From: a virus
IMG/VR virus record: IMGVR_UViG_3300031772_000023
Location: 3,985-67,984 of that record
Length of the DNA: 64,000 nucleotides
Strand: one strand, 5' to 3'
Position 1 is the stretch's first letter; every line of letters begins with the position of its first letter. The notes under the pieces are model-generated. The model was not told the origin of the DNA and ran no database searches. It saw only the letters and a list, made by a program, of their open reading frames with translations. Positions 2,700 to 60,307 of the stretch are shown piece after piece. A program made the translations under genes and the position numbers.

Positions 2700-2718
2700 G
2701 TAATTAATAAAACGATAC

Positions 2719-2751
2719 AAAAAAGCCAAGCAGTAATGTTTGGCTTTTTTT
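2719..2751 (+). terminator. Intrinsic terminator
   Basis: aaaaaagccaag-cagtaat-gtttggcttttttt hairpin with T tract. Confidence 0.75.
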
Positions 2752-2785
2752 GTTATATCTTTGTCTTAATTAAATTTAATTGATA

Positions 2786-2959: not shown

Positions 2960-3357
2960 AACGTCCTCAAATAAAAGATAAATCCGCACTAGCATATATT
3001 GAATATCTTGAAGATAGACTTCAACTATATGAAAAATCTCCATTTGTAAAATCATATTTAACAGTACTTGGTCAGATAAATGATTGGAATGACCAACTTA
3101 CAATAAAGAAAATAGAAACGTCCGAAGGAGACAAATTTTTAGGGAAAATAAATTTGTTTGCCGATGCTAGTTCAAAGGAATTCGATAGAGTACATAAATA
3201 TTTTACAGAAATGAAGCCATATTTTGAGCAATTAGCATATTTAAGGAAACAAATGACTACCGAAGAAAAAAATGAATTAACTAAAGAATTAAAGCCTCTT
3301 TCAGAAGATAGTGCTGAAAACTTTTTAATAAAAACAAATGCTACTTCCACAGTATAA
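2956..3357 (+). CDS. Putative terminase small subunit
   Basis: Small helical protein overlapping the terL start; positional inference only. Confidence 0.4.
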   Translation: MKRPQIKDKSALAYIEYLEDRLQLYEKSPFVKSYLTVLGQINDWNDQLTIKKIETSEGDKFLGKINLFADASSKEFDRVHKYFTEMKPYFEQLAYLRKQMTTEEKNELTKELKPLSEDSAENFLIKTNATSTV

Positions 3358-5503: not shown

Positions 5504-5509
5504 TTATAC

Positions 5510-5534
5510 GTAACCTTTCCAGAAACATTGCGTA
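5510..5534 (+). promoter_or_regulatory. ECF-sigma-like promoter motif GTAACCTTT-N12-CGT, copy 1
   Basis: GTAACCTTTCCAGAAACATTGCGTA, just upstream of ORF 5553. Confidence 0.6.
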
Positions 5535-5552
5535 CAACTTGTAAATACTAAA

Positions 5553-7121: not shown

Positions 7122-7131
7122 ATAAAACACT

Positions 7132-7797
7132 ATGAAAAACATAAAAACAACATTATCTCTTATGATAATAACTACTATGGCTGTAGCGCAAAACAATTCT
7201 ATATTTTCGGGAGGGTCTGCTGACGGATTTGCGATGGTGACAACTGGGCCTATTGATATTCCTCTACCAATAGAACTTGTATACTTTACGGCCAATAGAT
7301 CAAACAATGTTGTAGAAACAACATGGGAGACTGCTTCTGAATTTAATAGCGATTATTTTTTAGTTCAGCGTTCAGCAGACGGAATAATATTTGAAGAATT
7401 ACTTAGAGTAGAAGGCTCTGGAAATAGTAATACATCTAAAAAGTATTCTACTATAGATGAAATGCCTTTAATGGGAAGTAGTTTCTATAGATTGAAGCAA
7501 ATTGATTTTAATGGTAACTATGTATATTCAAAAACCGTAAATGTAATTTTTAAAAAAGAAGATTCTATAGTTATTATAAGTAAATATTTTATAGATTTAA
7601 ATGGATTCACTCCAATGGATAATTTAATTATTAAAACAATAGATATATCTGGAAAAGAATTATATTCAAACAATGTAACTACAGATAGTAATGGACATTA
7701 CGCTTTAATTAATAATAATGTTGCAGATGGATCGTATATAATATCAGTAATCTCCACTAGGGATATTAAGAATTATAAATTTATAATGTTTAATTAA
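7132..7797 (+). CDS. Secreted Bacteroidota-type protein with T9SS-cargo-like C-terminus
   Basis: Signal peptide, PLPIELVYFTA, WETASEFNSDYF, YRLKQIDFNG, DISGK...GSYII...KF end. Confidence 0.7.
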   Translation: MKNIKTTLSLMIITTMAVAQNNSIFSGGSADGFAMVTTGPIDIPLPIELVYFTANRSNNVVETTWETASEFNSDYFLVQRSADGIIFEELLRVEGSGNSNTSKKYSTIDEMPLMGSSFYRLKQIDFNGNYVYSKTVNVIFKKEDSIVIISKYFIDLNGFTPMDNLIIKTIDISGKELYSNNVTTDSNGHYALINNNVADGSYIISVISTRDIKNYKFIMFN

Positions 7798-11376: not shown

Positions 11377-11681
11377 ACTATTTTACTTCCCCATTTACCA
11401 TAAGCCTCACTATACGCTTCGATAGTCTTTCCTTCTTTTGTTACAAACTTACGATCAGCTCCTTCGCCTTCTACTTTTATCGCGCCATTTTCAATAATAA
11501 AATATTCGTTCTGCATCTCGTTTACTTCGCGCTTGAATATTCTAACCAATCCTTCATATTTATTTTTAAATTCTTTTATCTTACCTCTGTTAAAATATTG
11601 ATGTGCTTCATTCATCTGTGATATTTGAATATCAATATTAATTACATCATGTTTTGTAAGATTGATAGATTCTTTTGTCAT
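11373..11681 (-). CDS. Hypothetical protein
   Basis: 102 aa ORF convergent with portal. Confidence 0.5.
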   Translation of the reverse strand: MTKESINLTKHDVINIDIQISQMNEAHQYFNRGKIKEFKNKYEGLVRIFKREVNEMQNEYFIIENGAIKVEGEGADRKFVTKEGKTIEAYSEAYGKWGSKIV

Positions 11682-40669: not shown

Positions 40670-40685
40670 AATACATATACATGTT
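40670..40685 (+). repeat. attI-like site, partial copy
   Basis: AATACATATACATGTT identical to 44706-44721 and 59658-59673. Confidence 0.75.
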
Positions 40686-41167
40686 AGCAGAAATGGCTAC
40701 GACCCTACTAACAAGGATAACCATCGTGTAAGTTATCTTTCTTGTCTGTATAAAAAGAACCCGAAACACTGTGCATTGAACTATCACAAGTAATTTCTTC
40801 CCAAATTGTAACACCTAAATCTTCAATCTTTCTTTCTGTACGTTTTAAAAATTCATTAGCTAACTCTTCACTTTCAAATCCTTCGTTGTTTGGGCATCTG
40901 TAAATACGACCTAACACTTCGCCTGATTGGTGCAAAGCAAGATAACCCCAAGCACCTCCGTCTTGTAAATCACTTCCGCAAATTGGACATTCCATTGTAT
41001 AAAATTTAAAATTAATACCCTTGTAAATTAACCGCCACTTCTGCTAACAAGGGTTTGTAGCAATAGGGGCAGAAGGAACTAAATTGAGCCTTAGTACTTC
41101 TATTAGGCTGCGGTGCTATATTGAACAGTAGTGCTATAAATCCCCACTGCTACAAGCCCCAAACGTT
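40683..41167. mobile_element. Solo satellite gene cassette
   Basis: GTTAGCAGAAAT...ACTTCTGCTAAC inverted ends, then hairpin 41046-41167 (gggtttgtagca / tgctacaagccc). Confidence 0.85.
40708..40995 (-). CDS. Cassette gene, Cys-containing hypothetical protein
   Basis: CPICG start; fills the cassette. Confidence 0.7.
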   Translation of the reverse strand: MECPICGSDLQDGGAWGYLALHQSGEVLGRIYRCPNNEGFESEELANEFLKRTERKIEDLGVTIWEEITCDSSMHSVSGSFYTDKKDNLHDGYPC

Positions 41168-43826: not shown

Positions 43827-44666
43827 TTAAAAGTTTATATTGTTTATTGGAGACTGTATTTTTGAAATTAAGTTGTGTGAGATATGAGTATAGATTTCAG
43901 TCGTTCTTACGTCTGAATGACCAGCTAGTCTTTTTATAAGTAAAATATCTGTACCCATTTCTACCATGTGTGTGAAAGTGCAATGACGGATAAGGTGTGT
44001 ATAAACTCTTTTAGAAAGTCCTGCCGATTTAGCGAGTTGTTTTATTACCTCGCCAACTGATCTTGCCGAATATTGCAAATCATTTTGTCCATTAAAAACA
44101 TAAATAACGGATTTGTATTCTCTGTAATATTTTTCGAGCAATGGGATAACGTTAGGATTCAATCCTACCTGCCTGTCCTTTTTACCCTTTGCTTGAATAA
44201 TATTTATTATCATCCTACTTCTATCAATATGTGACCATTTTAAATTTATTATCTCAGATACACGAAGGCCGCATGAATATAGTAAAGCAAAAATAGTTTT
44301 GTGTTTCAGATTCTCACATACATTAAACATTCTCTGTATTTCCTCTTGAGATAAAACTATTGGCAGCTTTTTAGATTTCCTCGGACGCTCTATATATTTG
44401 AATTTCTCAATTCCAACATGAGCGACCTTTTCATAATAAATCTTTATTGCCGAATGATAACCGGAATGGGTTGATGGTTCTTGAAATTGACCAAGGAATT
44501 GAATTATCATTTCGTGATTAATTCTATCGGGATGAGTAACTTCTTTCCTTTCAAAGTGCGCAAGGAATCCAGTAAAGTTACTACAATAATTACTTACTGA
44601 TCTAGGAGAGTATTTTCTAAACTCCATATACTTTCTGAGTTGATTGGTATGCTCTGAAATATTCAT
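43827..44666 (-). CDS. Tyrosine recombinase, integron-integrase-like but without the IntI-specific insertion
   Basis: SAM-like N-terminus (YSPRSVSNY), KKLPIVLSQEE, catalytic GLRVSE / AKGKKDR / HLIRH / AGH / IYTH. Confidence 0.92.
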   Translation of the reverse strand: MNISEHTNQLRKYMEFRKYSPRSVSNYCSNFTGFLAHFERKEVTHPDRINHEMIIQFLGQFQEPSTHSGYHSAIKIYYEKVAHVGIEKFKYIERPRKSKKLPIVLSQEEIQRMFNVCENLKHKTIFALLYSCGLRVSEIINLKWSHIDRSRMIINIIQAKGKKDRQVGLNPNVIPLLEKYYREYKSVIYVFNGQNDLQYSARSVGEVIKQLAKSAGLSKRVYTHLIRHCTFTHMVEMGTDILLIKRLAGHSDVRTTEIYTHISHNLISKIQSPINNINF

Positions 44667-44697
44667 TTGATTACTGTTTAATTATTAGATAGTTACA

Positions 44698-44721
44698 TAA
44701 TATGTAATACATATACATGTT
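44698..44721 (+). repeat. attI-like primary site
   Basis: TAATATGTAATACATATACATGTT, 31 bp upstream of the recombinase start; ends in the first GTT of the array; no hairpin. Confidence 0.8.
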
Positions 44722-44733
44722 CTACGCAATTGT

Positions 44734-45012
44734 TCAAGGGGCAACAGCCACAGCCGTTTTACTATTCTGTATTTCTTCATGCTTTTCAAGTTCCTCTTTG
44801 AAATTGTGCATTGCAGAAATCATACAAGTTAATCCCCCTTCGTAGTTTGCAATCCATTCTTCCCAACCATACGAGCGTTTAATATCGTGCATCTTACCTC
44901 TCGTTCTATCTATCTCACATCTGAGTTCTTCAATTAATTCACTCATCGGTTTATCCATTTCATCTGCACTTTTGTAGTAAATTGGATTTTGGTCTTTGTT
45001 TTTTCTTTCCAT
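44734..45012 (-). CDS. Cassette 1 hypothetical protein
   Basis: Inside GTTCTACGCAATTGTTCAAGGGGC / GCCCCTTGAACAACTGACGTAGAAC inverted ends. Confidence 0.7.
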   Translation of the reverse strand: MERKNKDQNPIYYKSADEMDKPMSELIEELRCEIDRTRGKMHDIKRSYGWEEWIANYEGGLTCMISAMHNFKEELEKHEEIQNSKTAVAVAP

Positions 45013-45070
45013 TGTGTTTTATTTTTTAGTTATTAATTTCTTACAGCCGCCCCTTGAACAACTGACGTAG

Positions 45071-45151
45071 AACAAGCGGGTTTAATTCCATTGTCAAAAT
45101 CATTTCATCGTTGCGGGATATTTTGCCAACGAAATAAACCCGCAGGACGTT
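45071..45151 (+). repeat. attC-like hairpin 1
   Basis: AAC-aa-gcgggttta...taaacccgc-aggac-GTT. Confidence 0.8.
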
Positions 45152-45180
45152 ATATTCAATTCGTTTTTTCAATTTAAAAA

Positions 45181-45558
45181 TTAAGAGGTTGCTTCGTTGT
45201 GGCAACTGCAATCACATATACTTTTTGGAAACTCTCCGCAATCGCAATTTTCGCAAGTTCTCCATTTGGGTAATTTTTTTGTGCCTTTAATAAACTTCTG
45301 CCATTCATAATTATTTTTTGGTTCATAGTTCCATGCTTTTCTCAATTCATCTTCGGTGAAAAGTGTTTTGTTTTCGGTAATGATGCGATTGAGCATATCA
45401 ATTTTGTCCTCATAGTATTTTGCCCTGCCATTATCATCTTCAAATTGTAGTGCAAATTCATTCATCGCATCTAAAACTTCTTTCGTGAAGTATTCTGTAT
45501 TGCCACTTACATTTTTGAACGGACAATGTTTCTCTAAAATTTCTTTTGCTGTTTTCAT
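45181..45558 (-). CDS. Cassette 2 hypothetical protein
   Basis: MKTAKEIL..., Cys-rich C-terminus. Confidence 0.7.
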   Translation of the reverse strand: MKTAKEILEKHCPFKNVSGNTEYFTKEVLDAMNEFALQFEDDNGRAKYYEDKIDMLNRIITENKTLFTEDELRKAWNYEPKNNYEWQKFIKGTKKLPKWRTCENCDCGEFPKSICDCSCHNEATS

Positions 45559-45616
45559 TTTGATTGTAGTTTATATTGTGAAAGTATTTTTAAATTGAAA
45601 AAACGAACTGGAATAT

Positions 45617-45678
45617 AACAAGGGATTAAAAGAAATTGGCTGAAAAAAGAAGCCAACTTCTTTAATCCCCGATGCGTT
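45617..45678 (+). repeat. attC-like hairpin 2
   Basis: AAC-aa-gggattaaa...ttggct / agccaa...tttaatccc-cgatgc-GTT. Confidence 0.85.
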
Positions 45679-45728
45679 GTGCGCAATTTTTTGTGTATTA
45701 AAATGGGCAACAGCCACAGCCTGCATAC

Positions 45729-46346
45729 TTAAAATAGTTTTACCTGCATTGTTCGTTCTTTAAAATTTTTCATTGCATCATCATAATATCCTTTGTCAAT
45801 TTCACACGCCACCAAATCAAATTCTTTATAGTGGCAAGCAATGGCAATGTTTCCGCTTCCCAAATGTGTATCGAGTATTTTGTTTCCCTGCTCTGCATAT
45901 TCCTTTAGCAAAAATTCATATACTCTTATTGGCTTTTGGCATGGATGAACTTTGCCTCTGTAATCTCCTTTTGCCAATGGGTCACGCTTGTAAATTTTTG
46001 CGCATCTATCAAATGAAGTCCATGCCATTTCACATTCGGCATAAGTTCTATTTTTGAAACCTTCGCCTTTATCCCAAATCACAAAGCATCTTGTCGGTGG
46101 CAATCCAAAATAATTTCCACCCCATATAATTTGATTTTTGCTAACTCTAAATAGTTCATCAAAATATGCTTTGTCTGGGATTGCCTTATCCCAATCCTTC
46201 TTTTCAAAATTATTGAAGCCTTTATATCCAACATTGCCACCATCCATTCCAATTCCATAAGGCGGGTCAACTATTGCCAAATCAAAATGCTGGTCAGGAT
46301 ATTCTGCCATTAACTTCATGCAGTCTATGTTTCTAATATCAATCAT
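45729..46346 (-). CDS. Cassette 3 DNA methyltransferase (N6/N4, beta order)
   Basis: DPPYG before ILDTHLGSG; HPCQKP; likely start MIDIRNIDCM. Confidence 0.9.
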   Translation of the reverse strand: MIDIRNIDCMKLMAEYPDQHFDLAIVDPPYGIGMDGGNVGYKGFNNFEKKDWDKAIPDKAYFDELFRVSKNQIIWGGNYFGLPPTRCFVIWDKGEGFKNRTYAECEMAWTSFDRCAKIYKRDPLAKGDYRGKVHPCQKPIRVYEFLLKEYAEQGNKILDTHLGSGNIAIACHYKEFDLVACEIDKGYYDDAMKNFKERTMQVKLF

Positions 46347-46397
46347 AACAGCCGCCCATTTTAATACACAAAAAACTGTAAAGGCTAAAGCCCGCAC

Positions 46398-46504
46398 AAC
46401 ATAGGGTTTGCACTAATTTTCCTTCAACTTTTTTATTCTGTTTCATTTGTTTCAGTCAAACCGTTTGAGGCAAACGCCCTTCGGGTAGTCAAACCCTTGA
46501 ACTT
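46398..46504 (+). repeat. attC-like hairpin 3 (core CTT)
   Basis: AAC-at-agggtttg...caaaccct-tgaa-CTT. Confidence 0.7.
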
Positions 46505-46778
46505 AAATGCAATAGCTACGACCCCGCTCCGTAAGTTCAACTTTGCCATTTTTGCGTTCAACCAATTTATAATCCTCAAGTTTGTATATTGTTGCCCAAC
46601 TAATGTTTTTCATAGCATTATTTGAGTAAAAACATATTGCGTTAATGCCAGATAGATAGTATATAATCTCGTTAGCTTGTAAAGTTGATATTACTTCCTT
46701 TTGAGCTTTAGATAATTTAACCGCTACTGCATTTAACACGGGTTTGGCAAAAAAGCCGTTTTGGTCTTCGTTTGACAT
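46503..46778 (-). CDS. Cassette 4 winged-helix-like protein; starts inside hairpin loop
   Basis: LSKAQKEVI...LVE...ELTERG. Confidence 0.65.
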   Translation of the reverse strand: MSNEDQNGFFAKPVLNAVAVKLSKAQKEVISTLQANEIIYYLSGINAICFYSNNAMKNISWATIYKLEDYKLVERKNGKVELTERGRSYCI

Positions 46779-46852
46779 ATTGTTCTAATTTTTAAGTTTT
46801 GTAATTCTATTTGACTTTTCGTTTCGGCTTCTTCGCCAAGCCCGCAACCGTT
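46735..46852 (+). repeat. attC-like hairpin 4
   Basis: AAC-a-cgggtttggc...gccaagcccg-caacc-GTT. Confidence 0.85.
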
Positions 46853-46980
46853 GCACCGCAAGGCGGTGCAACTAAGTCCGCGTACCGCGTGCCGCCCTGC
46901 GGGCAACATCCCGTTTGATGCCAGCGCCGGGCATTGATGTGAAGCCACATCTGCCCGCGCCCGCACAAACGCGGACAGTT
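46850..46980. mobile_element. Cassette 5, gene-less GC-rich mini-cassette
   Basis: GTTGCACCGC-AAG-GCGGTGCAAC directly followed by hairpin gtccgcgt...acgcggac-a-GTT. Confidence 0.7.
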
Positions 46981-46999
46981 GGGCGCAATTTGTATTTGT

Positions 47000-47206
47000 T
47001 CAAAGGGGGCTAACAGCCAACGACACCTCATGGTCTATATAGTTATACATTTTCATTTTAAATTTCTCTTTCCCTCCCAATAATTTTATACTGCTTTTTT
47101 TAACCCACAAAAAAGATAATGGAATTGCTTTGTCCTTTATCGGCTTTCTTCCTGCACCTTTTCGTGCGCCCCCTCGTTTTGATTTTTTCATGTTCTCTGT
47201 CCGCAT
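47000..47206 (-). CDS. Cassette 6 small basic protein (GGARKGAGRKP motif)
   Basis: Same motif type as 60576..60767. Confidence 0.6.
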   Translation of the reverse strand: MRTENMKKSKRGGARKGAGRKPIKDKAIPLSFLWVKKSSIKLLGGKEKFKMKMYNYIDHEVSLAVSPL

Positions 47207-47264
47207 TGAAGCGCACGGCTGAACCGCAGAGAAACCGTCCTACTGACTTAGCAGAACAGCAGGA

Positions 47265-47693
47265 TTACGCTTCAACTGAATTATTCTTTTTCAGTAATTC
47301 TACAAGCTCCTCCATTGAATTTTTAAGCCGACTAATTTCATCTTTCAAATCGTCAATGATTGGCTCTTTATAAACATGGTATTTATTATAATTTGACCAG
47401 CCGATTGAATAAAGAAGTGACTGAATTTTGTAGGTGCTTCCCATGATTTTGCATTTATCTACATGAGAATAGTCGAGTTTATTCGGGTCTCTTTCTTCTT
47501 CTGGAGTACCATACTGATAATCCTTACCAAATTCAATCTGTTCAATAATAATATCATCCAAATCATCATTGGTTTCAATTATAAAAGAGGAATTATAATC
47601 CTCAATAAATAATGATTCACCTGTTTCAGTGATGACTCTGAATCCACATTCGTGTGGATGTTTTTTCCATGAAATAATCTTTTTTGTTTTCAT
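47265..47693 (-). CDS. Cassette 6 hypothetical protein
   Basis: Likely start MKTKKII, downstream of near-consensus -7 box at 47733-47740. Confidence 0.65.
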   Translation of the reverse strand: MKTKKIISWKKHPHECGFRVITETGESLFIEDYNSSFIIETNDDLDDIIIEQIEFGKDYQYGTPEEERDPNKLDYSHVDKCKIMGSTYKIQSLLYSIGWSNYNKYHVYKEPIIDDLKDEISRLKNSMEELVELLKKNNSVEA

Positions 47694-47855
47694 TGTGCTA
47701 AGTTTTAATTGTTGATGTTTTGATTTGTAACGTAAAGATAAGTATTTAATTTGAATTGGCAATAGGTTTAATCAAATATATTTTCAATACAAGAATAGTG
47801 CCAAAACAGCCGCCCCCTTTGAACAAATACAAACTGCAAGGGCTAAAGCCCGCCC

Positions 47856-47965
47856 AACATAGGATTTGCAGTAATTGGTCATTTCCTTTTTTATTTTTTT
47901 CATATTGATAAATGCCCAACCAAAACGAGGCGTTTTGCCCTTCGGGTACTCAAACCCTCACCATT
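47856..47965 (+). repeat. attC-like hairpin 6 (core ATT)
   Basis: AAC-at-aggatttg...caaaccct-cacc-ATT; related to hairpin 3. Confidence 0.7.
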
Positions 47966-48317
47966 ATCCGCAAGCGTTCAAAGGGGCAACAGCCTCCCAG
48001 CCAATCCCATTCGCCATTTCTTCTTTCAACATTTTCTGTAATGCAGGTAATATTTTCTCCGCAAATCTGTTACAAGCTGTTTCGCATTTTTTGCCATACA
48101 AAATGTAAGCCATTCCTGTGTACATTTTAGTTCCGAAGTAACCAATATTTAAACCGATTAGAAAATCTCGGAAATCTTTATCTCCGTAACTTCTCCAAGC
48201 AAAGGAAAGGTTTCCCCAATCCGTAACCGATGCGAACATTCCATCTGATGTTAGAACTATTTGTCCTAACCATTCTCCATTGTCGCCTTTCAGCGAGTAA
48301 CTTTTTGATTGTACCAT
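47964..48317 (-). CDS. Cassette 7 hypothetical protein
   Basis: Stop codon overlaps the junction core. Confidence 0.7.
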   Translation of the reverse strand: MVQSKSYSLKGDNGEWLGQIVLTSDGMFASVTDWGNLSFAWRSYGDKDFRDFLIGLNIGYFGTKMYTGMAYILYGKKCETACNRFAEKILPALQKMLKEEMANGIGWEAVAPLNACG

Positions 48318-48383
48318 TTTGTTTTTATGTTTTAGTTATTGTTTCAAGTTTCTTACAGCCGCCCCTTTGAACGCCAGACGGAT

Positions 48384-48462
48384 AACATCGGATATAGTCA
48401 AGTAAAATTTCCTTCTCATAGTTGCTATTGATAAATTTTCCCTGCCCATATCCGTCAGCGTT
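48384..48462 (+). repeat. attC-like hairpin 7
   Basis: AAC-at-cggatat...atatccg-tcagc-GTT. Confidence 0.75.
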
Positions 48463-48533
48463 AGCAGACATTGTAATTATTAAAAAAACAAAAGCCACCG
48501 CACTCTTTAAATTTTTCAAATTTATAAAATGTT

Positions 48534-49079
48534 TTATTTCGTAATCGTTTCAAACACTATCTTCTTTGGTAAAATATCCTTCGTAACATACACACTTGAA
48601 AACGGAGGGTTCAAACTCGGTTTTTGGTCTGCATAGCTTTTAAAGTAGCTTATCCGTTTATTAAAATACATTATTTCAAATTCGTTATCCTTAAACATAT
48701 TAAATCGTTTTTGGCTTTCAAACAATCCAACTACTCCAACAAGCATCGCAAATGGTTTTCCAAGTTCAAATAGTTTTTGGAATACTTCTGCTTTAATTGA
48801 GTAGGGCGGATTTGAAATAATGTAATCAAAGTTCACAAGAAATTCAGTTGTAAAAAAATCTCTACCATCTGAAATATGTGAGCAAATAGCATCGTGTCCT
48901 TGTTCTCTAAGCATTTTTACAAAGTTACTTTCTTCCGTATCAAACGGACACCACACAATACTTTTTGGCTTCAAGTATTTCATAAGCGGTTCTATTGCAT
49001 ATCTTGGTGTATAAAATTCATCATTCGGATTTATTTCTCCGTTCATTTCTGCTTTGTTTGTAATCTCGTCCAGTTTCAT
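48534..49079 (-). CDS. Cassette 8 small adenine methyltransferase-like protein
   Basis: DEFYTP, VWCPFD, DFF, IISNPPYS. Confidence 0.75.
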   Translation of the reverse strand: MKLDEITNKAEMNGEINPNDEFYTPRYAIEPLMKYLKPKSIVWCPFDTEESNFVKMLREQGHDAICSHISDGRDFFTTEFLVNFDYIISNPPYSIKAEVFQKLFELGKPFAMLVGVVGLFESQKRFNMFKDNEFEIMYFNKRISYFKSYADQKPSLNPPFSSVYVTKDILPKKIVFETITK

Positions 49080-49176
49080 ATTTCTTAGTTTAAATTAAGA
49101 GCCGACACACACCTTCCCTTTTTGTTTTTTTAATAATTACAACGAGCCTACGCTCAAAATCCCACCGCACTCTGCT

Positions 49177-49235
49177 AACACTGGGTTTAACGTCAGTTTG
49201 CGAAAAGCAAACCGAACGTAAACCCAGATACCGTT
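49177..49235 (+). repeat. attC-like hairpin 8
   Basis: AAC-a-ctgggttta...taaacccag-atacc-GTT. Confidence 0.85.
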
Positions 49236-49458
49236 ATGCGTAATTATTCAGCAACGCCACTACCTTAACCGCCATTTCTCTATCACCCCAAAAGCCCTCA
49301 CACACTCTACGGTCACACCATAAATCTAAATGTGTTCGTGGCTTATCGTGTTCACCAATTTCATAGTATCTAACCTTCCCTCTAACCACTTCTCTGAACA
49401 CATAACTGCGCATAACAGGAAGATTAGAAGAAATTTCTTTTTTGTTTTCAGTTTCCAT
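49234..49458 (-). CDS. Cassette 9 hypothetical protein; starts inside hairpin loop
   Basis: ISSNLPVMRS is encoded by the hairpin arm. Confidence 0.65.
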   Translation of the reverse strand: METENKKEISSNLPVMRSYVFREVVRGKVRYYEIGEHDKPRTHLDLWCDRRVCEGFWGDREMAVKVVALLNNYA

Positions 49459-49546
49459 ATTGAGTTTTGTTTTTAATTATTAGCATTTCGTTTTCAATCA
49501 AAGTTTGCGGAGACAAAAAAGAAACTTCTCTAATCTCCGATGCGTT
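49414..49546 (+). repeat. attC-like hairpin 9
   Basis: AAC-a-ggaagattagaagaaatttc...gaaacttctctaatctcc-gatgc-GTT. Confidence 0.85.
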
Positions 49547-49575
49547 ACCCAAAATAAAAGTGGGCAATTAGCATC

Positions 49576-49725
49576 CTACTTTGAAAATGCTTTTATATAT
49601 TGTTTAATCGTTGCCTTTTTAAATCCTCGTCTCATTAATTGGCTAACGATTACACCATTTGTTTTTCCGTCTCCGAGCAAGTATCTTACTTGCCATTGGA
49701 GGTCTCGCTTTTCTTCGTTTGTCAT
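49576..49725 (-). CDS. Cassette 10 small protein (49 aa, not in ORF track)
   Basis: MTNEEKRDLQWQVRYLLGDGKTNGVIVSQLMRRGFKKATIKQYIKAFSK. Confidence 0.6.
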   Translation of the reverse strand: MTNEEKRDLQWQVRYLLGDGKTNGVIVSQLMRRGFKKATIKQYIKAFSK

Positions 49726-49775
49726 AATATTTATTTTAAAAGTTAATTTTCGTTTTGCCCACTTTTACTTCGGGT

Positions 49776-49868
49776 AACATAGTTTTGTGTGCCAGTTGGC
49801 TTCACCATTTTATTTTCTTCAATTTGTTTCATCCAACCGTTCCCTTCGGGCAACAAAACTTGTCCGTT
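49776..49868 (+). repeat. attC-like hairpin 10
   Basis: AAC-at-agttttgt...acaaaact-tgtcc-GTT. Confidence 0.75.
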
Positions 49869-49886
49869 ATCGGTCAGCACTACATT

Positions 49887-50138
49887 TCATTGAAAAGATA
49901 ATGATTCTAACTCCCACTTAGCGGACTTATGCGAAAAAACTAATGCTGTACCCCATCCTGCATGTGGGACTAAAACATCATAACTAATATACTTCCAATT
50001 TTCAAAGTATGTTTGTAAAAACACTACATACCCATCAATTTCTATTGGTATCCAAGCAAACTTCTTTGCTTTACATACTTGTCCAATAAAATAATTTTCT
50101 TTAACAAGTATCTTTTTTTCTCTTTTTTTAAACTTCAT
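49887..50138 (-). CDS. Cassette 11 hypothetical protein
   Basis: KFAWIPI..G..VFLQ.Y. Confidence 0.65.
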   Translation of the reverse strand: MKFKKREKKILVKENYFIGQVCKAKKFAWIPIEIDGYVVFLQTYFENWKYISYDVLVPHAGWGTALVFSHKSAKWELESLSFQ

Positions 50139-50199
50139 AAAACATTAATTTTTGACGTTAGCAATAACTCCTCTATAATTTTACCCGTGCCGAACCGAT

Positions 50200-50326
50200 A
50201 ACAAGGGGTTTTGTGCTATTGCGGCTTGACGTTCTTAATTTCAACATTTGTTTTTCAATCGGGCTGCATCTGTGGTTTGAACTGCGGTAATTCTATTTCC
50301 GCAACAGACACAAAGCCCTGTTCGTT
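50200..50326 (+). repeat. attC-like hairpin 11
   Basis: AAC..gggttttgtgctattgcgg...ccgcaacagacacaaagccc..GTT. Confidence 0.85.
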
Positions 50327-50350
50327 ATAAAACATTGCCATTCCAGTTCA

Positions 50351-50521
50351 TCAATGAAAGTGGGTGCATCTATAACATTCAACATTTCTATTTTCACATT
50401 CCCTATGCCAAAAGGAATGGCAACGCTTTATAACAGGAAGATTTGAAGAAATTTTATTTACTTCCTTATCTGCTTTTTTAGGCGTTTTTGCTTTAACTTT
50501 CTTTACTGCTTTTTTCATCAT
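50351..50521 (-). CDS. Cassette 12 small Cys/His protein (56 aa, not in ORF track); starts inside hairpin loop
   Basis: MMKKAVKK...ISSNLPVIKRCHSFWHRECENRNVECYRCTHFH. Confidence 0.55.
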   Translation of the reverse strand: MMKKAVKKVKAKTPKKADKEVNKISSNLPVIKRCHSFWHRECENRNVECYRCTHFH

Positions 50522-50569
50522 TTGTGCTTTTAAGTCGTAAATAAAACATTCTCAAATCTCCGATGCGTT
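50432..50569 (+). repeat. attC-like hairpin 12
   Basis: Same arm family as hairpin 9. Confidence 0.85.
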
Positions 50570-50580
50570 AGTGGCAAGTG

Positions 50581-50766
50581 CTACATTTCGTCTTCGTAAA
50601 AACATTTGCCTTTAGTGCTAAAATATTCTTTTGCCCACTCTTTACCTTTCCCGTTCAATAATGCTTCTACAAAATCAGCTATGATATTTGCACCGTCACA
50701 ATGTCCATCTGGACCATCGTTAATCATTATGTCGCTAATAATATTTTCAATTTGTTCTTTGTTCAT
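50581..50766 (-). CDS. Cassette 13 hypothetical protein
   Basis: DGPDGHCDG motif; fills the cassette. Confidence 0.65.
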   Translation of the reverse strand: MNKEQIENIISDIMINDGPDGHCDGANIIADFVEALLNGKGKEWAKEYFSTKGKCFYEDEM

Positions 50767-50795
50767 TTTTCGTTTAATTTACCGCACCAGCCACT

Positions 50796-50890
50796 AACAG
50801 TGGTTTTGTGCTATTATTTTGGCTATAAAATTTATCTTTAAAGGTAAGTGTCTGCAAGCCAAAATAACAGACACAAAGCCACGAAACGTT
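50796..50890 (+). repeat. attC-like hairpin 13
   Basis: AAC-a-gtggttttgtgctattattttggct...agccaaaataacagacacaaagccac-gaaac-GTT. Confidence 0.9.
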
Positions 50891-50901
50891 GTAGGCAATG
50901 G

Positions 50902-51168
50902 CTAAGAGTGTTCAATCATTGCCTGTGCTATAAAAATTGTTTCCTCTCCCTTATGCACAAATTGTTGATTAGGTATTACTTTCATCACATAGCCACTTGT
51001 GTATTCAAGCACCGTGTCTGTTTCACTATCATAGTCGGCAACAATTTTATCCGACCACTCAAATAGCACTTGCACAGGCAAATTAACTATTCGGATGTCG
51101 CCACTGCCTACAACATTGTGTTGCTGCAATTGTGGCAATTCCCACTTAAATTCATCTTTGTTTTTCAT
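50902..51168 (-). CDS. Cassette 14 hypothetical protein; starts inside hairpin loop
   Basis: Likely start MKNKDEF; LPQLQQHNVVGS is encoded by the arm. Confidence 0.65.
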   Translation of the reverse strand: MKNKDEFKWELPQLQQHNVVGSGDIRIVNLPVQVLFEWSDKIVADYDSETDTVLEYTSGYVMKVIPNQQFVHKGEETIFIAQAMIEHS

Positions 51169-51237
51169 ATCAAGTTTTTGTTTGTTATTCAACTTTTGTC
51201 TTTCAAATGCCACAACTGACAGCAACACCTTACCGTT
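51112..51237 (+). repeat. attC-like hairpin 14
   Basis: AAC..gtgttgctgcaattgtggca...tgccacaactgacagcaacac..GTT. Confidence 0.85.
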
Positions 51238-51260
51238 ATACGCAAGGCTACCATTCATTT

Positions 51261-51752
51261 TCATATTGAGCATTTCGGTAAGGTTTTAAAGATTGTATCA
51301 CCCTCCCATCCACGCTTCATTTCTAAAATACAGGTTTGAACTCTGCTTCCTTTGAAAGTGCTTCGTGGCAAATGTGTAATTGATTTTAGCCCCCATTCCA
51401 TAATATCCTTTGTCCTTTTCTCTCCGTTTATAATTGCCAAATAAGGCATCAGAGCAATTATATTATCCGTCATATCCATACACTTGTAAAGGATATCATA
51501 CCCTTGCTTCATTGGGCTAAATGGTGGGTTCATCACTATCCATTCAAATTGGCTTTCCACCATTTTATTAAAATCATTTGGCACAATCACTTTTCCGTAT
51601 TGCTCTAATGCCTTTACAAGTTTTCCTTTGCCAGCAGTGGGCTCTAAAATCAAACCTGTATTTCCAATAAGAAATGAAGCCATATACTCACACACATTTT
51701 CGGGTGTTTGAAAATTATCGCCCCAATCTTTAAAATCTTTTTCTTCTTCCAT
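51261..51752 (-). CDS. Cassette 15 small adenine methyltransferase-like protein
   Basis: FQTP, ILEPTAGKG, IVMNPPF. Confidence 0.8.
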   Translation of the reverse strand: MEEEKDFKDWGDNFQTPENVCEYMASFLIGNTGLILEPTAGKGKLVKALEQYGKVIVPNDFNKMVESQFEWIVMNPPFSPMKQGYDILYKCMDMTDNIIALMPYLAIINGEKRTKDIMEWGLKSITHLPRSTFKGSRVQTCILEMKRGWEGDTIFKTLPKCSI

Positions 51753-51787
51753 ATCAATATTTTCTCTTAATTAACCGCCCAGCGTAT

Positions 51788-51876
51788 AACACGGTATTTG
51801 TGCTATTTTGCCATTGGGCTTTATCTATAATTTGAACATTTGTGCAAGGCAAAACAGACACAAATACCCATCCGTT
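51788..51876 (+). repeat. attC-like hairpin 15
   Basis: AAC-ac-ggtatttgtgctattttgcc...ggcaaaacagacacaaatacc-catcc-GTT. Confidence 0.9.
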
Positions 51877-51905
51877 AGTTACCTGCAAGTGCTACGATAC
51901 TGCTA

Positions 51906-52631
51906 CTATTGAACATTTGTGGGAGAAAATTTAAAAAGTTTTTCCACGCTCTTAAAATTATTCTGTTTACTTAACGTGTTACTTAATTCCATCTCCCAAA
52001 CACATTCAAAGTCAATAGGTGCGTTATATTCACTCACAAATACTGTGCGTCCTTCTTTTGATTTATCCCTACACCATTCCCAAAATTCAATATGGTCTAT
52101 TCCGTTTTTGTATTTTATAGTCCCTTCGTATGGTGGGTCGCAATAAATGATTGAGTTTGGTGGTATTTCTAAATTCTTATAATCAGATTGAACAAAATGA
52201 ACTGATATTAAATTAGGTATTTGCTTTATCAAACCACGTCTTGCTTCATCTTGATGATTAGGTAATTTTCCGTTTTTTAATCTTTTTGATTCTTGATAGT
52301 CACTCAAATAACCACCAAACCATTTCCCTCCATAGCTACAACATATTCCTGCCCATACAGTCATTTTACTATCTCTATCTTGGTTTTGTTTAATATATTC
52401 ATATTCATCCCTACTTATTCTTAATGGTGGTGTCCATCCATCTTGCAATGCTTTATAAAATTCAATTAAATGTTTGTTATAATCAGAAGCAAGTCTTAAA
52501 CCTTCAACTTTATCGGTGATGTTTGCTCCACCAACAAAAGGCTCAACAAACCATTGATTAGGTTTTCTATCATTTAGTATTATTGGTAAAATGTGTTTTG
52601 CAATTCTACTTTTATTTCCTGTATATCTCAT
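51906..52631 (-). CDS. Cassette 16 Dam/D12-class DNA adenine methyltransferase
   Basis: YTGNKS, FVEPFVGG, IYCDPPY, VFVSEY. Confidence 0.9.
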   Translation of the reverse strand: MRYTGNKSRIAKHILPIILNDRKPNQWFVEPFVGGANITDKVEGLRLASDYNKHLIEFYKALQDGWTPPLRISRDEYEYIKQNQDRDSKMTVWAGICCSYGGKWFGGYLSDYQESKRLKNGKLPNHQDEARRGLIKQIPNLISVHFVQSDYKNLEIPPNSIIYCDPPYEGTIKYKNGIDHIEFWEWCRDKSKEGRTVFVSEYNAPIDFECVWEMELSNTLSKQNNFKSVEKLFKFSPTNVQ

Positions 52632-52702
52632 ACTCTAAAACTTTTTTAATTTTCTATTCGTTTTCAAATCAAAATCCTGCTAAATTAACCGCACCAGCAG
52701 GT

Positions 52703-52766
52703 AACAGCACCCTTAACGCAAGTGGGCTGAAAAAAGAAGCCCACCAGCGTAAGGCTGCAATCCGTT
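52703..52766 (+). repeat. attC-like hairpin 16
   Basis: AAC-a-gcacccttaacgc..gtgggct / agcccac..gcgtaaggctgc-aatcc-GTT. Confidence 0.8.
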
Positions 52767-53028
52767 ATAGGAAATTTATGGATTTTAGGTATTTCTCAAC
52801 ACCTTCCTTTATTCCTAAACTTTGGTTGTGTATTCCTTCACATTCCATTGATTGACAAAAATCCATAAACATTCCTATAACATCGGGTTTATGAAATTTT
52901 TTAACCTCACTTTCTGCAAACTCCGAGAGTAGGTCTTCTAATCTAAAGTAGTTTTCAGGTGCGGTTTCATCAGCAACATTTGCACCTACATAAATCTTTT
53001 TGCTTCTTAAAAATTCTCTTGTATTCAT
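52765..53028 (-). CDS. Cassette 17 hypothetical protein; about half encoded inside the hairpin
   Basis: VKKFHKPDVIG is encoded by the arm. Confidence 0.65.
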   Translation of the reverse strand: MNTREFLRSKKIYVGANVADETAPENYFRLEDLLSEFAESEVKKFHKPDVIGMFMDFCQSMECEGIHNQSLGIKEGVEKYLKSINFL

Positions 53029-53077
53029 TTTGTTATATTTAAACGGTTAAAAAACTATCATAAACCCGAATCACGTT
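52879..53077 (+). repeat. attC-like hairpin 17 (longest, 199 bp)
   Basis: AAC-a-tcgggtttatga..ttttttaacc...ggttaaaaaa..tcataaacccga-atcac-GTT. Confidence 0.85.
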
Positions 53078-53085
53078 ATGCGTAA

Positions 53086-53376
53086 TTAAAAGAACTCGTT
53101 AATCATAGCATCTACTGTTGGCTTTAAGAACCTGAAATACTCTCTTTTGTGTTCAGCAATATCTTCTTCATTTATCCCAAACCAAAAGATAATTGGCAAA
53201 GGAATTTCAAACTCTTTTGATATTGTTTCTAATACGCTAATGTTTGGAGTTTTTGCTCCAGTTTCAATTTGTGATAAGTATGTTTGAGTTATACCTATCA
53301 ATTTTGCAAACTCCGACTGATTTAATTGCGGTGTTCGCTCTTTTCTAATGTTTCTAATTGCTATTCCTACATTCAT
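53086..53376 (-). CDS. Cassette 18 XRE-family HTH regulator with its own promoter
   Basis: NQSEFAKLIGITQTYLSQIETG; TACCTTTG -7 box at 53398-53405. Confidence 0.85.
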   Translation of the reverse strand: MNVGIAIRNIRKERTPQLNQSEFAKLIGITQTYLSQIETGAKTPNISVLETISKEFEIPLPIIFWFGINEEDIAEHKREYFRFLKPTVDAMINEFF

Positions 53377-53478
53377 AATTTTATGTTATTTATTAAGCAA
53401 AGGTAATAATTATTTCTGACAAAACAAATTTATCTTAAAAATATTAACTACGCATAATAGCAGAAATAAAAAATTTGC

Positions 53479-53861
53479 TCATAGCGTTCTGTGCTTCGGT
53501 TCAACATACGCCACGCCAATCCTATCAAACAGGTCTTTTTCCTCACGCACTTCATAGCTTTTGCCATTCTGCATAAGGTAGCCACCTTCGCTTTTTGCCA
53601 TTGGTTCACTATCTCCGCTATGCCATCCTGAAAAAGACCAGCTTGATAGGGCTTTGGAATTGCTACTATCTCAATGTCCTTTACTTCGCTTTTCTCCCTG
53701 CGTATGCTTCCTGCAATCTCACATCTTATGCAATGTGGTTGTAGCAATTCCAACACACGCACCGCTATCGAATGGGCTTCATCGTAAGCAAATTTTTTAC
53801 TATCCGCTAACACACCATTGGAAGTAATGGCGGTCTTTTCGGTATCATTTTGCTTTTTCAT
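53479..53861 (-). pseudogene. Cassette 19 family X DNA polymerase-like gene with internal deletion and frameshift
   Basis: IAGSIRR..VKDIEIV in one frame; EEKDLFDRIGVAYVEPKHR-stop in another frame; middle missing. Confidence 0.75.
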
Positions 53862-53928
53862 ATTATTTATCTTTTAGTTGTTAATCAAAATTATCTTTTC
53901 TATTCCGCCACTACTCCAATGGTCGGTT
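53809..53928 (+). repeat. attC-like hairpin 19
   Basis: AAC..accattggaagtaatggcgg...ccgccactactccaatggt..GTT. Confidence 0.85.
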
Positions 53929-54154
53929 AGCCGCCATTTAAAAGACGCTTTATCGTTCTATAATCTTCAACCTCTTTATGTAATGCTTTTAATCCTTCAA
54001 TTTGCATTTCTAAGTCTTGTTTTACCACTTCGTTTGTTTGTCTAACCAGTTCTTTTTGTAAGTCTGCTGCAATCCGTAACAATAAACGGCTGCTAACAAC
54101 ACCTAAACAAGATGGCTGGTTTTCGTTTTCTAATGAAGTTTTGTCTGTATTCAT
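53927..54154 (-). CDS. Cassette 20 coiled-coil protein; starts inside hairpin loop
   Basis: QPSCLGVVSSR is encoded by the arm. Confidence 0.65.
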   Translation of the reverse strand: MNTDKTSLENENQPSCLGVVSSRLLLRIAADLQKELVRQTNEVVKQDLEMQIEGLKALHKEVEDYRTIKRLLNGG

Positions 54155-54217
54155 AATTTTGTGATTTTAATTAAGTTTTGTGGTGGAATACGCCACCTCG
54201 TTTAGCTGCAAAATGTT
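54095..54217 (+). repeat. attC-like hairpin 20
   Basis: AAC..ctaaacaagatggc...gccacctcgtttag..GTT. Confidence 0.75.
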
Positions 54218-54227
54218 AGCACCAATA

Positions 54228-54413
54228 CTACTTTAGTGCTTCGTCCAATCTTCCGAGAACAACTAACAATGTTTTGCGTTTAATATCGCATTTCATTGCA
54301 GCTTCAAAATCCTCTGCTTTTTTATAGTCTTCAATGTGGTTGTATAGTTGCTCTATTCGATTAACCATATCCATTCTCATTCTTTCAATGTTTTCTCTTA
54401 ATGTTTCTTTCAT
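54228..54413 (-). CDS. Cassette 21 hypothetical protein
   Basis: Inside GTTAGCACCAATAC / GTACTGGTGCTAAC inverted ends. Confidence 0.65.
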   Translation of the reverse strand: MKETLRENIERMRMDMVNRIEQLYNHIEDYKKAEDFEAAMKCDIKRKTLLVVLGRLDEALK

Positions 54414-54451
54414 CGTTTTTAATTTTATCGTTAATAATCCGTACTGGTGCT

Positions 54452-54500
54452 AACAGCGTATAAAAGCCATTGAAAAAACGGCTCTTATACGCCAACCGTT
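54452..54500 (+). repeat. attC-like hairpin 21 (shortest, 49 bp; end of array)
   Basis: AAC-a-gcgtataaaagcc...ggctcttatacgc-caacc-GTT. Confidence 0.85.
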
Positions 54501-56140: not shown

Positions 56141-56299
56141 TTAAAAAGGGGTTTTATTTGTTTCTGAAATTGACCTATTAGCCGATTCTTCATTTTTAAG
56201 TACTTGATATAAAGCGTTACATATTTGAGAATTATATGATACTCCATATCTTTTCTTTTCTTCCATCCATTTACTGAAATCAGAATGTATTCTAATGTT
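56141..56299 (-). pseudogene. Ribbon-helix-helix-like small gene whose 5' end is interrupted by a cassette
   Basis: NIRIHSDFSKWMEEKKRYGVSYNSQICNAL; stop abuts the dnaB ATG. Confidence 0.4.
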
Positions 56300-56762
56300 A
56301 GCGGTAATACTGCGACATCGCTTCGTAGAAAGTTTTTGCCATATTTTCAAATTCTGCCAAATCAATGTTTTTGCTTACACACATATCAATTCTATCTTCA
56401 CCTAAAACCATACACTCATACATTATTCCTATTCTGTTTGCGTATGGGTCACGGTCTGCGTACTTTCTAAAATCATAAAACAATATGCCTATTTGATAAA
56501 TTTTATCTTCACCATTTTTTAAAGTTTTCCAATAACAGAAATCCTCGTTTTTATGATTTTGAACGTATCTTCTATATCCTATTTCTTTTAGTTTAGTTTC
56601 CGTTTCAGATAACCATTCATCCCAAGAAGTACTACCGCTAACATCCGCTATAAGTAATGGCGGTTGAAGTGGTAAATCAATGTTTGTGCTTTTTATTGTC
56701 ATTTGTACTGAATTTAAAGTGAGTAGTTCTAAATCCGCCACTACTCATAGCGGAGTACCGTT
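56297..56762. mobile_element. Satellite cassette upstream of dnaB
   Basis: GTTAGCGGTAATAC / GTACTACCGCTAAC ends; hairpin 56640-56762. Confidence 0.85.
56298..56702 (-). CDS. Cassette gene, hypothetical protein; starts inside hairpin loop
   Basis: Likely start MTIKSTN; PPLLIADVSGS is encoded by the arm. Confidence 0.65.
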   Translation of the reverse strand: MTIKSTNIDLPLQPPLLIADVSGSTSWDEWLSETETKLKEIGYRRYVQNHKNEDFCYWKTLKNGEDKIYQIGILFYDFRKYADRDPYANRIGIMYECMVLGEDRIDMCVSKNIDLAEFENMAKTFYEAMSQYYR

Positions 56763-59649: not shown

Positions 59650-59673
59650 TAATATGTAATACATATACATGTT
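59650..59673 (+). repeat. attI-like site, full 24-bp copy
   Basis: Identical to 44698-44721. Confidence 0.8.
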
Positions 59674-60218: not shown

Positions 60219-60307
60219 ATTGTGTAGTTTTTAATCCGTAAAAAATAACTTCGCCAAGCCCGATATACGTTATATGCCTATTGTAACGCAAGAATCATAA
60301 TAAGGTT

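Follow-up and report, generated by a model that had tools for sequence, protein, structure and literature searches.

Long complementary cassette ends with a position-fixed A/C mismatch in integron-like arrays of a tailed phage

We analysed a window of 64 kb, which is part of a 67,984-nt viral record (IMG/VR record IMGVR_UViG_3300031772_000023, with an estimated completeness of 91%). It holds one Xer/IntI-like recombinase gene, three attI-like sites and about 24 gene cassettes in integron-like arrays. The main finding is that the two ends of every two-armed cassette are complementary to each other over 14-34 nt, and that this pairing is interrupted at one fixed place, where the A at position 11 of the cassette start stands opposite a C (22/22 cassettes). 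New here is also that the hairpin between the cassettes repeats this A/C mismatch, together with the consensus of the arms, in mirror orientation. Judging from the sequence, we consider it fairly probable that a folded attC-like recombination site has the paired ends as its outer arm, to which the recombinase binds.

Results

Pairing of the cassette ends

Read along the plus strand, each unit consists of G|TT with the start arm, a gene on the minus strand, the end arm ending in AAC, a hairpin and the next G|TT. The AAC is followed by 1-2 nt, the hairpin takes up 27-193 nt, and about 5 nt precede the next G|TT. The R box of described integrons is 7 bp. An earlier note on this DNA had proposed that the cassette ends pair well past such a box, up to about 30 bp, with an A mismatched against a C about 11 nt from the G. 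The four pairs that it quoted are present as written (45149-45181/45586-45619, 54215-54228/54441-54454, 50888-50902/51100-51114 and 59671-59685/59935-59949), the last being in the third array and outside the range given there, and both proposals were borne out when all the two-armed cassettes were measured. Array B contributes 19 of its 21 slots. The exceptions are B19 and B5, the latter giving no reading at position 11 because its 10-bp stem is too short. The cassettes A1, X and C1 outside array B behave alike, which brings the total to 22. The paired extent is 14-15 nt in 13 of them and 21-34 nt in the other nine (B1, B2, B3, B6, B7, B8, B10, B12 and B17). The pairing exceeds chance: with B5 left out, a score of at least 10/11 over positions 4-10 and 12-15 was reached by 20/22 cognate combinations of ends compared with 2/462 non-cognate ones. 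In this test B6 scored 8 with its end set one base off, and this end has since been corrected.

There are further irregularities in the arms. A single extra base is located near end-arm position 8 in five cassettes (B1, B2, B7, B11 and B17), and a second mismatch, A10/A, exists in four (B7, B13, B15 and B16). The mini-hairpins of B3 and B6 and the 26-nt insert of B8 are placed exactly where these other cassettes have their single extra base, and such an element within the end arm would make a three-way junction. The ends had also been described as private to each cassette. The cognate pairing agrees with this, but the description holds only in a relative sense, because the start arms have the consensus GTTAKNNGCAAT; one family of ends is also present in other phages. 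As a side observation, the flanks beyond the 15-bp stem are conserved yet non-complementary in a subset of the cassettes of the window and its relatives, with TAC following the start arm and TTAACCGC preceding the end arm (for example 40695-40700 and 41028-41036).

Conservation in related phages

A detector that is blind to position 11 was applied to the window together with 29 related loci (L005-L033), 429,719 nt in all. It required all of positions 4-8 and 5/6 of positions 9, 10 and 12-15 to be paired, and allowed 0-2 extra bases. An initial design, asking for 9/12 matches at positions 9-20, was discarded as too noisy in the related loci (33 hits vs 47 in reversed controls). The detector yielded 91 pairs, of which 71 are unique. 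Position 11 is A/C in 57 unique pairs, drawn from 19 sources, the flipped combination G/T in 0, and something else in 14; the last number is at background level, the reversed-sequence controls giving 17 unique hits. According to the earlier note, its reading would fall if the position of the mismatch were not conserved in a full alignment; what the alignment gives is 57 A/C pairs and none flipped.

Every gene lies between 14-34-nt inverted repeats and a tyrosine recombinase gene is nearby, which is also what would be expected if the end pairs were the inverted repeats of gene switches or the termini of small transposons. We regard this as very improbable and rejected both forms of it: the flipped state, with G at start position 11, occurs in 0/71 pairs, the genes all face one way, no target-site duplications were found, and the units abut via hairpins in arrays that open at a conserved attI-like site.

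At positions 4-9 as well as 12-15, each of the four types of Watson-Crick pair is present, so that it is the pairing rather than the sequence that is kept. Past position 15 the pairing goes on in about one third of the pairs. The base after AAC is A in 55/57 pairs and the base before GTT is C in 36/57, which adds a further A/C, i.e. G-T on the minus strand. The end family of cassette B8 is found in three phages (window 48460-49232; L005, reverse complement, 6314-7301; L023, reverse complement, 10882-11399). Among its members the R box differs at three places and the long arm at several, and one base has been inserted; for every one of these changes the partner arm shows the matching one. The likeness covers about 55-85 nt of the cassette start and about 70 nt of the cassette end, with the long arm and the 26-nt insert included, while the cargo genes are unrelated: one is methylase-like, one encodes a protein with a CxxxCxxC motif and one a 136-aa protein.

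Shared ends around unrelated proteins could also mean that the arms are relics. Genes would have been dropped into the loop of an empty hairpin cassette, the arms would be kept alike by copying, and the A and the C at position 11 would be separate contacts in double-stranded DNA, with the pairing irrelevant to recombination. Cassettes that are empty or without a gene do exist (B5 with 23 nt and B12 with 111 nt), homologous ends are found on three cassettes with unrelated proteins, insertions and deletions are mirrored in both arms, and contigs from two samples match both ends of B21 and skip its interior. Copying alone, however, would erase the difference between A and C, which 57/57 pairs keep. 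Moreover, the minimal arm of 14-15 nt is uniform across unrelated cassettes and matches the arm size of tyrosine recombinases, and this design is also that of the hairpin stem, whose pairing is certain. As an account of the arms we therefore find the relic explanation unlikely; it may well hold for the origin of the cassettes, where it is compatible with a recombination site. The ends shared around unrelated cargo and the skipped interior of B21 may bear on how cassettes are made.

The inner stem and a two-armed site

The earlier note had also seen a similar A/C mismatch in some of the hairpins between cassettes. We aligned the two hairpin arms of 22 junctions in the window and 23 in its relatives, 45 in all, and found this mismatch to be real and general, as it is located at +15 or +16 after AAC in 30/45 junctions. 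Among all the inner-stem mismatches, A/C with the A on the 5' arm was counted 48 times, T/G 9, C/C 9, A/A 8, T/C 6 and others 6; G/T was seen once, and the reverse combination C/A was counted 0 times. Under a stricter test, in which four pairs were required beyond the mismatch, A/C was found in 28/45 junctions and C/A in 1, and G/T, T/G and A/G in 0.

When the arms are aligned on the mismatch, the inner and the outer arm share a consensus: T at arm position 2 (inner 25/28, outer 57/57), G at position 7 (19/28 and 43/57), A at position 9 (18/28 and 41/57) and T at position 11 (20/28 and 41/57). The A of the mismatch is in both arms on the strand whose 5'-to-3' direction leads outward from the centre; a dyad thus relates the inner mismatch to the outer one. 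In both arms the optional extra base is on the strand that carries the C. The spacing of the arms on the end-arm strand is 6 nt in 18/28 junctions and 7 nt in 7/28. The start-arm strand has 2-5 additional nt, with 4 in 13/28 junctions, and in most of the 45 junctions the spacer has 1-2 nt next to AAC and 5-6 nt next to GTT.

The core site of Xer/dif-type systems consists of two inverted arms of about 11 bp around a central region of 6-8 bp. Since the hairpin has the same A/C mismatch and the arm consensus in mirror image, the folded junction of a cassette circle looks like such a two-armed dif-like core, and the layout of the aligned arms is that of a putative tyrosine-recombinase core site with a bulged central region. 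The start arm may also resemble the XerD arm of E. coli dif, a likeness on which no conclusion is based here.

A different mismatch, which we record separately, is a T/G pair at +6 or +7 after AAC in 9/45 hairpins of the GGGTTTG type (for example those at 41049-41164, 46738-46849, 50203-50323 and 50799-50887). It is a wobble on the plus strand and A-C on the minus strand, a polarity opposite to that of all the other mismatches, and it is located at the inner edge of the presumed central region.

Strand asymmetry

For 23 junctions we reconstructed the circle form by joining end arm, hairpin and start arm, and folded both strands with DNA parameters. It had been suggested that the stem extends on both sides of the core in the excised circle. 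In the computed folds it does, as one continuous hairpin, and the compensating changes across three phages agree with this. The minus-strand circle form is 9.6 kcal/mol more stable than the junction in its array form; that the outer stem is broken after integration, as was also suggested, is plain from the sequence, and this break could, as the earlier note proposed, favour insertion over excision. The minus strand folds better than the plus strand in 19/23 junctions, with means of -31.3 vs -27.3 kcal/mol, and it has 3.22 G-T pairs per site compared with 0.74 on the plus strand.

According to PMC5027507, enzymes of the family to which the recombinase belongs cut 5'-AA|C-3', and the bottom strands of classical attC sites have 1.24 vs 0.39 G:T mispairs. 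From the position of the crossover at the start arm, the AA|C cleavage and the bias in folding and in G-T pairs, the minus strand would be the reactive one. The idea that the mismatch reads as T/G, a wobble, on the opposite strand and may in this way select it is supported by the same fold and G-T counts and by the AAC at the crossover. Marking the strand in this way is an established principle, published for the bottom strands of classical attC sites (PMC5027507); here it takes an extreme, position-fixed form. Taken as a whole, the earlier interpretation is partly supported, in its circle stem by the computed folds and in its strand marking by the strand bias, with the reservation on private ends given above. 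It did not include that the recombinase differs from IntI, that the genes are turned round relative to classical cassettes, or that the inner and the outer mismatch belong to two halves of a single site with dyad symmetry. The minus strand is also the coding strand of the cassette genes, which means that the genes are inverted relative to classical integrons and that the hairpin is 5' of the gene.

The last point gives room to the main rival, namely that the pairing acts in RNA. The untranslated cassette ends would pair in a long leftward transcript, with G-U pairs, as signals for processing or stability, and the DNA site would be no more than the hairpin with a 7-bp R box. The minus strand has all of the cassette genes, and it is on this very strand that the wobbles are G-T. 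Untranslated regions overlap with the long arms, which in the B8 family are next to a GGAGG motif directly ahead of the start codon. On the other hand, the pairing begins exactly at the GTT/AAC crossover triplets and is kept in the gene-less cassettes B5 and B12, the wobble is at one fixed distance from the crossover in 57/57 pairs, and the arm consensus is found without a partner at the attI-like sites and at the array ends. In addition, a dyad centred on the crossover relates the inner mismatch to the outer, an arrangement that two recombinase subunits would need. An RNA structure is therefore improbable in our estimation, though less so than inversion or transposition.

One further observation concerns translation. 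In several cassettes the start codon is located in the hairpin loop (46778, 49458, about 51168, 53028, 53861 and about 56701), and there the reading frame crosses one hairpin arm and the end arm.

The recombinase

The tyrosine recombinase P0001 (279 aa, minus strand, 43827-44666) is Xer/IntI-like and matches Pfam PF00589 with an E-value of 3.2e-35. Its scores are below the cut-offs of all four more specific models: 177.3 bits for NCBIfam XerA (cut-off 220), 152.1 for XerD (329.6), 151.8 for XerC (335.15), and 162.7 for the integron integrase TIGR02249 (265), the last being split in two stretches. Among solved structures the best match is VchIntIA (2a3v, E 5e-28), with archaeal XerA-type proteins close behind. 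The alignment covers residues 8-179 and 249-319 of 2a3v, and the query residues 180-205 stand for 2a3v residues 180-248, that is, 26 residues where VchIntIA has 69. This region contains the integron-specific (I2) helix, the additional domain near patch III that marks integrases of the IntI clade. The phage recombinase is not an IntI, and the IntI-specific insertion is absent from it.

The enzyme belongs to a large group of several thousand proteins. We found 20 relatives with 55-77% identity on viral contigs, and nine more on contigs binned into genomes, mostly Bacteroidota. At least 120 protein clusters have at least 62% identity to it, with lengths of 237-315 aa, mostly 275-286; the 120 closest clusters are all short like the recombinase of the window, and they are called XerD where the source gives a name. 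Among 50,697 records of isolated phages, no recombinase was found that is more than 33% identical over most of the length.

Discussion

Proposed mechanism

We propose that a cassette is excised as a circle, in which the end arm, the hairpin and the start arm would become contiguous. The junction on the minus strand would fold to a long hairpin that mimics a double-stranded dif-like core, made of an 11-bp arm, a short centre and another 11-bp arm, and two copies of the Xer-like recombinase, without the IntI insertion, would bind the two arms. The AA|C cut would take place on the start-arm strand, and this single strand would be exchanged with the attI-like site, itself double-stranded, in the manner of integrons and CTX-phi. 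At arm position 10, which is start position 11, the fixed T-G wobble would keep the stem of the reactive strand paired, while the complementary strand would get a C-A mismatch at this place and the end arm would have C where the cleavable arm has T. With one strand and one of the two AAC triplets as the substrate, the orientation of the cassette would be fixed. In single-stranded DNA the two ends of a cassette could also pair across the gene, which would leave the junction flanked by two hairpins.

In its full form this proposal says that the circle junction self-assembles a dif-like core, that its two dyad-symmetric 11-bp arms, each tagged by a T-G pair, are read by an Xer-type recombinase lacking I2, and that the wobble is a one-base code, in which T is cleavable and C is dead, replacing the mechanism of extrahelical bases and the I2 helix. 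We hold this extended version to be tentative, with less confidence than the recombination site itself, though above any of the alternatives discussed.

Several points weigh against the recombination site and the code. No recombination product was seen in the data, which consist of contigs; in these, hairpins shared among contexts are visible, while recombination or rare circle junctions are not. Because the minus strand is the mRNA strand, the G-T bias could equally be a G-U bias of RNA. The outer arm is non-cognate in the array, and excision from the array is not explained by the model. Classical cassettes also pair past 7 bp, over 8-12 nt, so part of the extension may be general to integrons. 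The inner A/C was not found in 15-17/45 junctions. On the side of method, the pairing rates at the detector positions are forced by construction, so that the informative results are the variety of pairs and position 11; the reading of 11-bp arms with a 6-nt spacer rests on the alignment of mismatches and not on footprints; and the cassette coordinates were curated by eye, several being corrected along the way.

Comparison with known systems

In many respects the arrays resemble integrons. The recombinase gene reads away from an adjacent attI-like site, after which the array follows; the cassette limits are at G|TT; an imperfect hairpin is closed by AAC/GTT with unpaired nucleotides beside the crossover; and the opening bases of a cassette are complementary to the AAC end of the site that belongs to it. 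The strand with AAC at the crossover is enriched in G-T pairs, as reported by Nivina et al. 2016 (PMC5027507), and DNA methylases are among the cargo, as is reported for phage attC clusters (PMC9892861). The differences are as follows. The phage enzyme is without the IntI-specific segment. Its cassette genes read toward the recombinase gene with the hairpin 5' of the gene, whereas classical ones read away from it with attC at the 3' side. Instead of a 7-bp R box there is an outer stem of 14-34 bp, whose wobble at position 11 is invariant, and the spacer bulges by 2-5 nt on one side in place of a loop on both. No extrahelical G and T are conserved near the L box, the conserved irregularities being A/C mismatches, and the end arm may contain an extra base or a mini-hairpin.

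As a control, the ends of 13 classical cassettes were compared, a small sample in which the cassette limits were inferred from the chain (L034, reverse complement, 2200-6968; L035, 12849-17247). In the Shewanella phage integron, perfect runs of 8-12 nt were found in the nine cassettes of the chain that was followed, and in the class 1 array the pairing amounts to 12, 12, 8 and 12 nt; none of the 13 cassettes has a fixed mismatch. Some pairing beyond 7 bp seems to be general; stems as long as 14-34 bp, combined with the invariant wobble and an inner arm in mirror image, are not.

The second point of comparison is CTX-phi. According to PMC4792948, XerCD, which is without an I2-like domain, recombines a CTX-phi hairpin that mimics double-stranded DNA. 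In both CTX-phi attP(+)/dif and the present arrays, a folded single strand mimics a double-stranded two-armed core for an Xer-type enzyme without an I2-like domain, and single-strand exchange with a double-stranded partner is expected. Here, however, a single, phage-encoded recombinase is found in a tailed double-stranded-DNA phage, the substrate is a gene cassette and not the phage genome, and one arm is assembled from two cassette ends.

The third is the integrase-free attC clusters (CALINs) that Qi et al. 2023 (PMC9892861) describe for virulent phages, among them one with a host in the Bacteroidota. Rows of attC-like sites in phage genomes and methylase cassettes are common to both. The published clusters were found by classical attC models, reported as integrase-less and assayed with IntI1, whereas here the phage's own Xer-like recombinase adjoins. 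Section 3.4 of that paper makes no mention of extended end pairing or a fixed mismatch. In a search of the full-text literature, whose scope does not extend to subscription journals and supplements, we found no account of pairing past the R box, of a fixed mismatch, or of this recombinase family together with cassette arrays.

In integron research, the choice of strand, and hence the orientation of cassettes, is attributed to extrahelical bases that are read by the IntI-specific helix, and this helix is treated as the adaptation that enables single-strand recombination. The present case consists of a large phage recombinase family without the IntI helix, adjoining arrays with full-length paired arms that have one fixed wobble each. 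If the proposal is true, it would be a second and simpler solution to strand selection and a natural intermediate between reactions of the Xer/dif or CTX-phi type and integrons, and one base pair would give a clean experimental handle. A code read without I2 would further mean that the capture of cassettes as single strands had its origin, or persists, in phages lacking the integron-specific domain, and one pair of ends re-used for unrelated genes would show how cassettes are made. A viral origin of integrons has been raised as speculation in a passage of PMC4792948. The feature also shows why tools based on IntI and on classical attC models miss such arrays, and that phages shuffle small genes as cassettes, including methylases whose role is probably anti-restriction.

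Genome context and array layout

From position 1 to 40,357 the window carries virion and packaging genes on the plus strand (terminase, portal and structural proteins). Between 40.7 and 61.2 kb the family-matched genes are all on the minus strand; these include DnaB, a DnaA-like HTH (helix-turn-helix) protein, NinB-like and RusA-like proteins, four DNA-methylase-like proteins and the tyrosine recombinase. A scan of the whole window against Rfam gave 0 matches.

The attI-like sites, all on the plus strand, are marked by the 15-mer ATACATATACATGTT, which has 3 genomic copies vs 0 in the backwards control: site A (40671-40685), the copy at 44707 within site B (44680-44721), and site C (59659-59673). 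The likeness among the three stops after GTT. Of the three copies, only that at 44707 adjoins the recombinase gene, 40 nt upstream of it. The crossover of site B was taken as directly after G 44719, so the range of 44719-54454 given in the earlier note runs exactly from this G to the AAC of the last cassette of array B. An attI-like site is at the same place in 17/19 related loci that include upstream sequence; L007 and L018 were not closely assessed. As in integrons, the site is beside the recombinase gene and the array opens at its G|TT. As for attC, the window has imperfect hairpins closed by RYYYAAC/GTTRRRY and cassette starts complementary to the inverse core; 23 junctions have the order AAC, stem-loop, spacer, GTT.

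Array B comprises 21 cassette slots and array A one cassette, while array C has one intact cassette followed by truncated ones; the solitary cassette X sits between the genes for DnaB and a DUF6291 protein. The arrays open with a start arm right after the attI-like sequence and close with a hairpin and then GTT, a pattern that fits the insertion of circles cut at G|TT. At the place of X there is weak similarity to the attI-like site, and the sequence after its hairpin repeats the first 9 nt of its start arm.

Between the window and 20 related viral loci no whole cassette is common; the hairpins and the ends of one family are what they share. A 13.5-kb contig of another sample has in common with the window the segment 49763-49869 (16 nt of end arm, the hairpin and GTTA) and nothing else. 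In the probable source sample, contig breaks coincide with the hairpins, which means that the hairpins are repeated in other contexts of that community. Many further joints of low likeness in the contigs of four runs, with short sides of 20-32 nt, do not count as evidence here. One sequencing run contains the stretch and may be where it came from, and nine others have 5-9% of its words.

The individual cassettes

All of the cassettes are assigned to the minus strand, and for each we give the whole unit, the start arm, the end arm and the hairpin in this order; every one with two arms has the A11/C mismatch, and further mismatches are named. Array A consists of A1 (40683-41164; 40683-40697, 41034-41048, 41049-41164). 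Array B begins with B1 (44719-45148; 44719-44742, 45049-45073 with the extra base after position 8, 45074-45148), followed by B2, the second cassette of the earlier note (45149-45675; 45149-45181, 45586-45619 with one extra base, 45620-45675), and B3, which encodes an N6/N4 DNA methylase (45676-46501; 45676-45708, 46354-46400, 46401-46501). A 14-nt mini-hairpin is inserted after position 8 of the B3 end arm (46379-46392). B4 follows (46502-46849; 46502-46516, where C replaces G, 46723-46737, 46738-46849). B5 is empty (46850-46977): its 23 nt at 46850-46872 make a 10-bp stem with a 3-nt loop, and its hairpin (46873-46977) is rich in G+C, unlike the phage with 33% G+C. In B6 (46978-47962; 46978-47010, 47812-47858, 47859-47962) the end arm again has a 14-nt mini-hairpin insert (47837-47850).

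In B7 (47963-48459; 47963-47987, where A replaces G, 48361-48386, 48387-48459) the mismatch A10/A is added. B8 is methylase-like (48460-49232; 48460-48493, 49120-49179, 49180-49232), and the 26-nt insert of its end arm (49143-49168) has a small GAGC/GCTC stem. Next are B9 (49233-49543; 49233-49247, 49402-49416, 49417-49543), B10 with A8/C (49544-49865; 49544-49567, 49755-49778, 49779-49865), B11 (49866-50323; 49866-49880, 50187-50202 with one extra base, 50203-50323), B12 with A9/C (50324-50566; 50324-50344, 50414-50434, 50435-50566), B13 with A10/A (50567-50887; 50567-50581, 50784-50798, 50799-50887) and B14 (50888-51234; 50888-50902, 51100-51114, 51115-51234). A10/A is also present in B15 (51235-51873; 51235-51248, 51777-51790, 51791-51873) and in B16, which encodes a D12 adenine methylase (51874-52763; 51878-51892, 52691-52705, 52706-52763) and whose pairing start arm begins 4 nt after the first GTT.

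The hairpin of B17 (52764-53074; 52764-52786, 52858-52881 with one extra base, 52882-53074) has 193 nt and contains the start of the open reading frame. B18 encodes an HTH protein (53075-53485; 53075-53089, 53444-53458, 53459-53485; gene at 53086-53376). In the B19 slot (53486-53925) no end arm pairs with the start, and the hairpin (53812-53925) is flanked by CCGCTAAC and GTTAGCCG. The array closes with B20, which has C7/T in addition (53926-54214; 53926-53940, 54083-54097, 54098-54214), and B21 (54215-54497; 54215-54228, 54441-54454, 54455-54497). Outside it are X (56297-56759; 56297-56311, 56628-56642, 56643-56759) and C1 (59671-60029; 59671-59685, 59935-59949, 59950-60029). The C1 hairpin is the one that the earlier note placed at 59947, and its inner stem has A/C at +10 and +15.

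Methylase-like cargo genes are located in four cassettes (45729-46397, 48534-49079, 51261-51752 and 51906-52631), with three clear Pfam hits and one weak. Two junctions are degenerate. At that of B18 (53444-53485) the end arm finishes with AAT instead of AAC and the hairpin has 27 nt; at 60245-60268 in array C there is the 3' half of a hairpin only, and the end arm of the preceding cassette is gone. The cassettes with these junctions are probably fixed in place.

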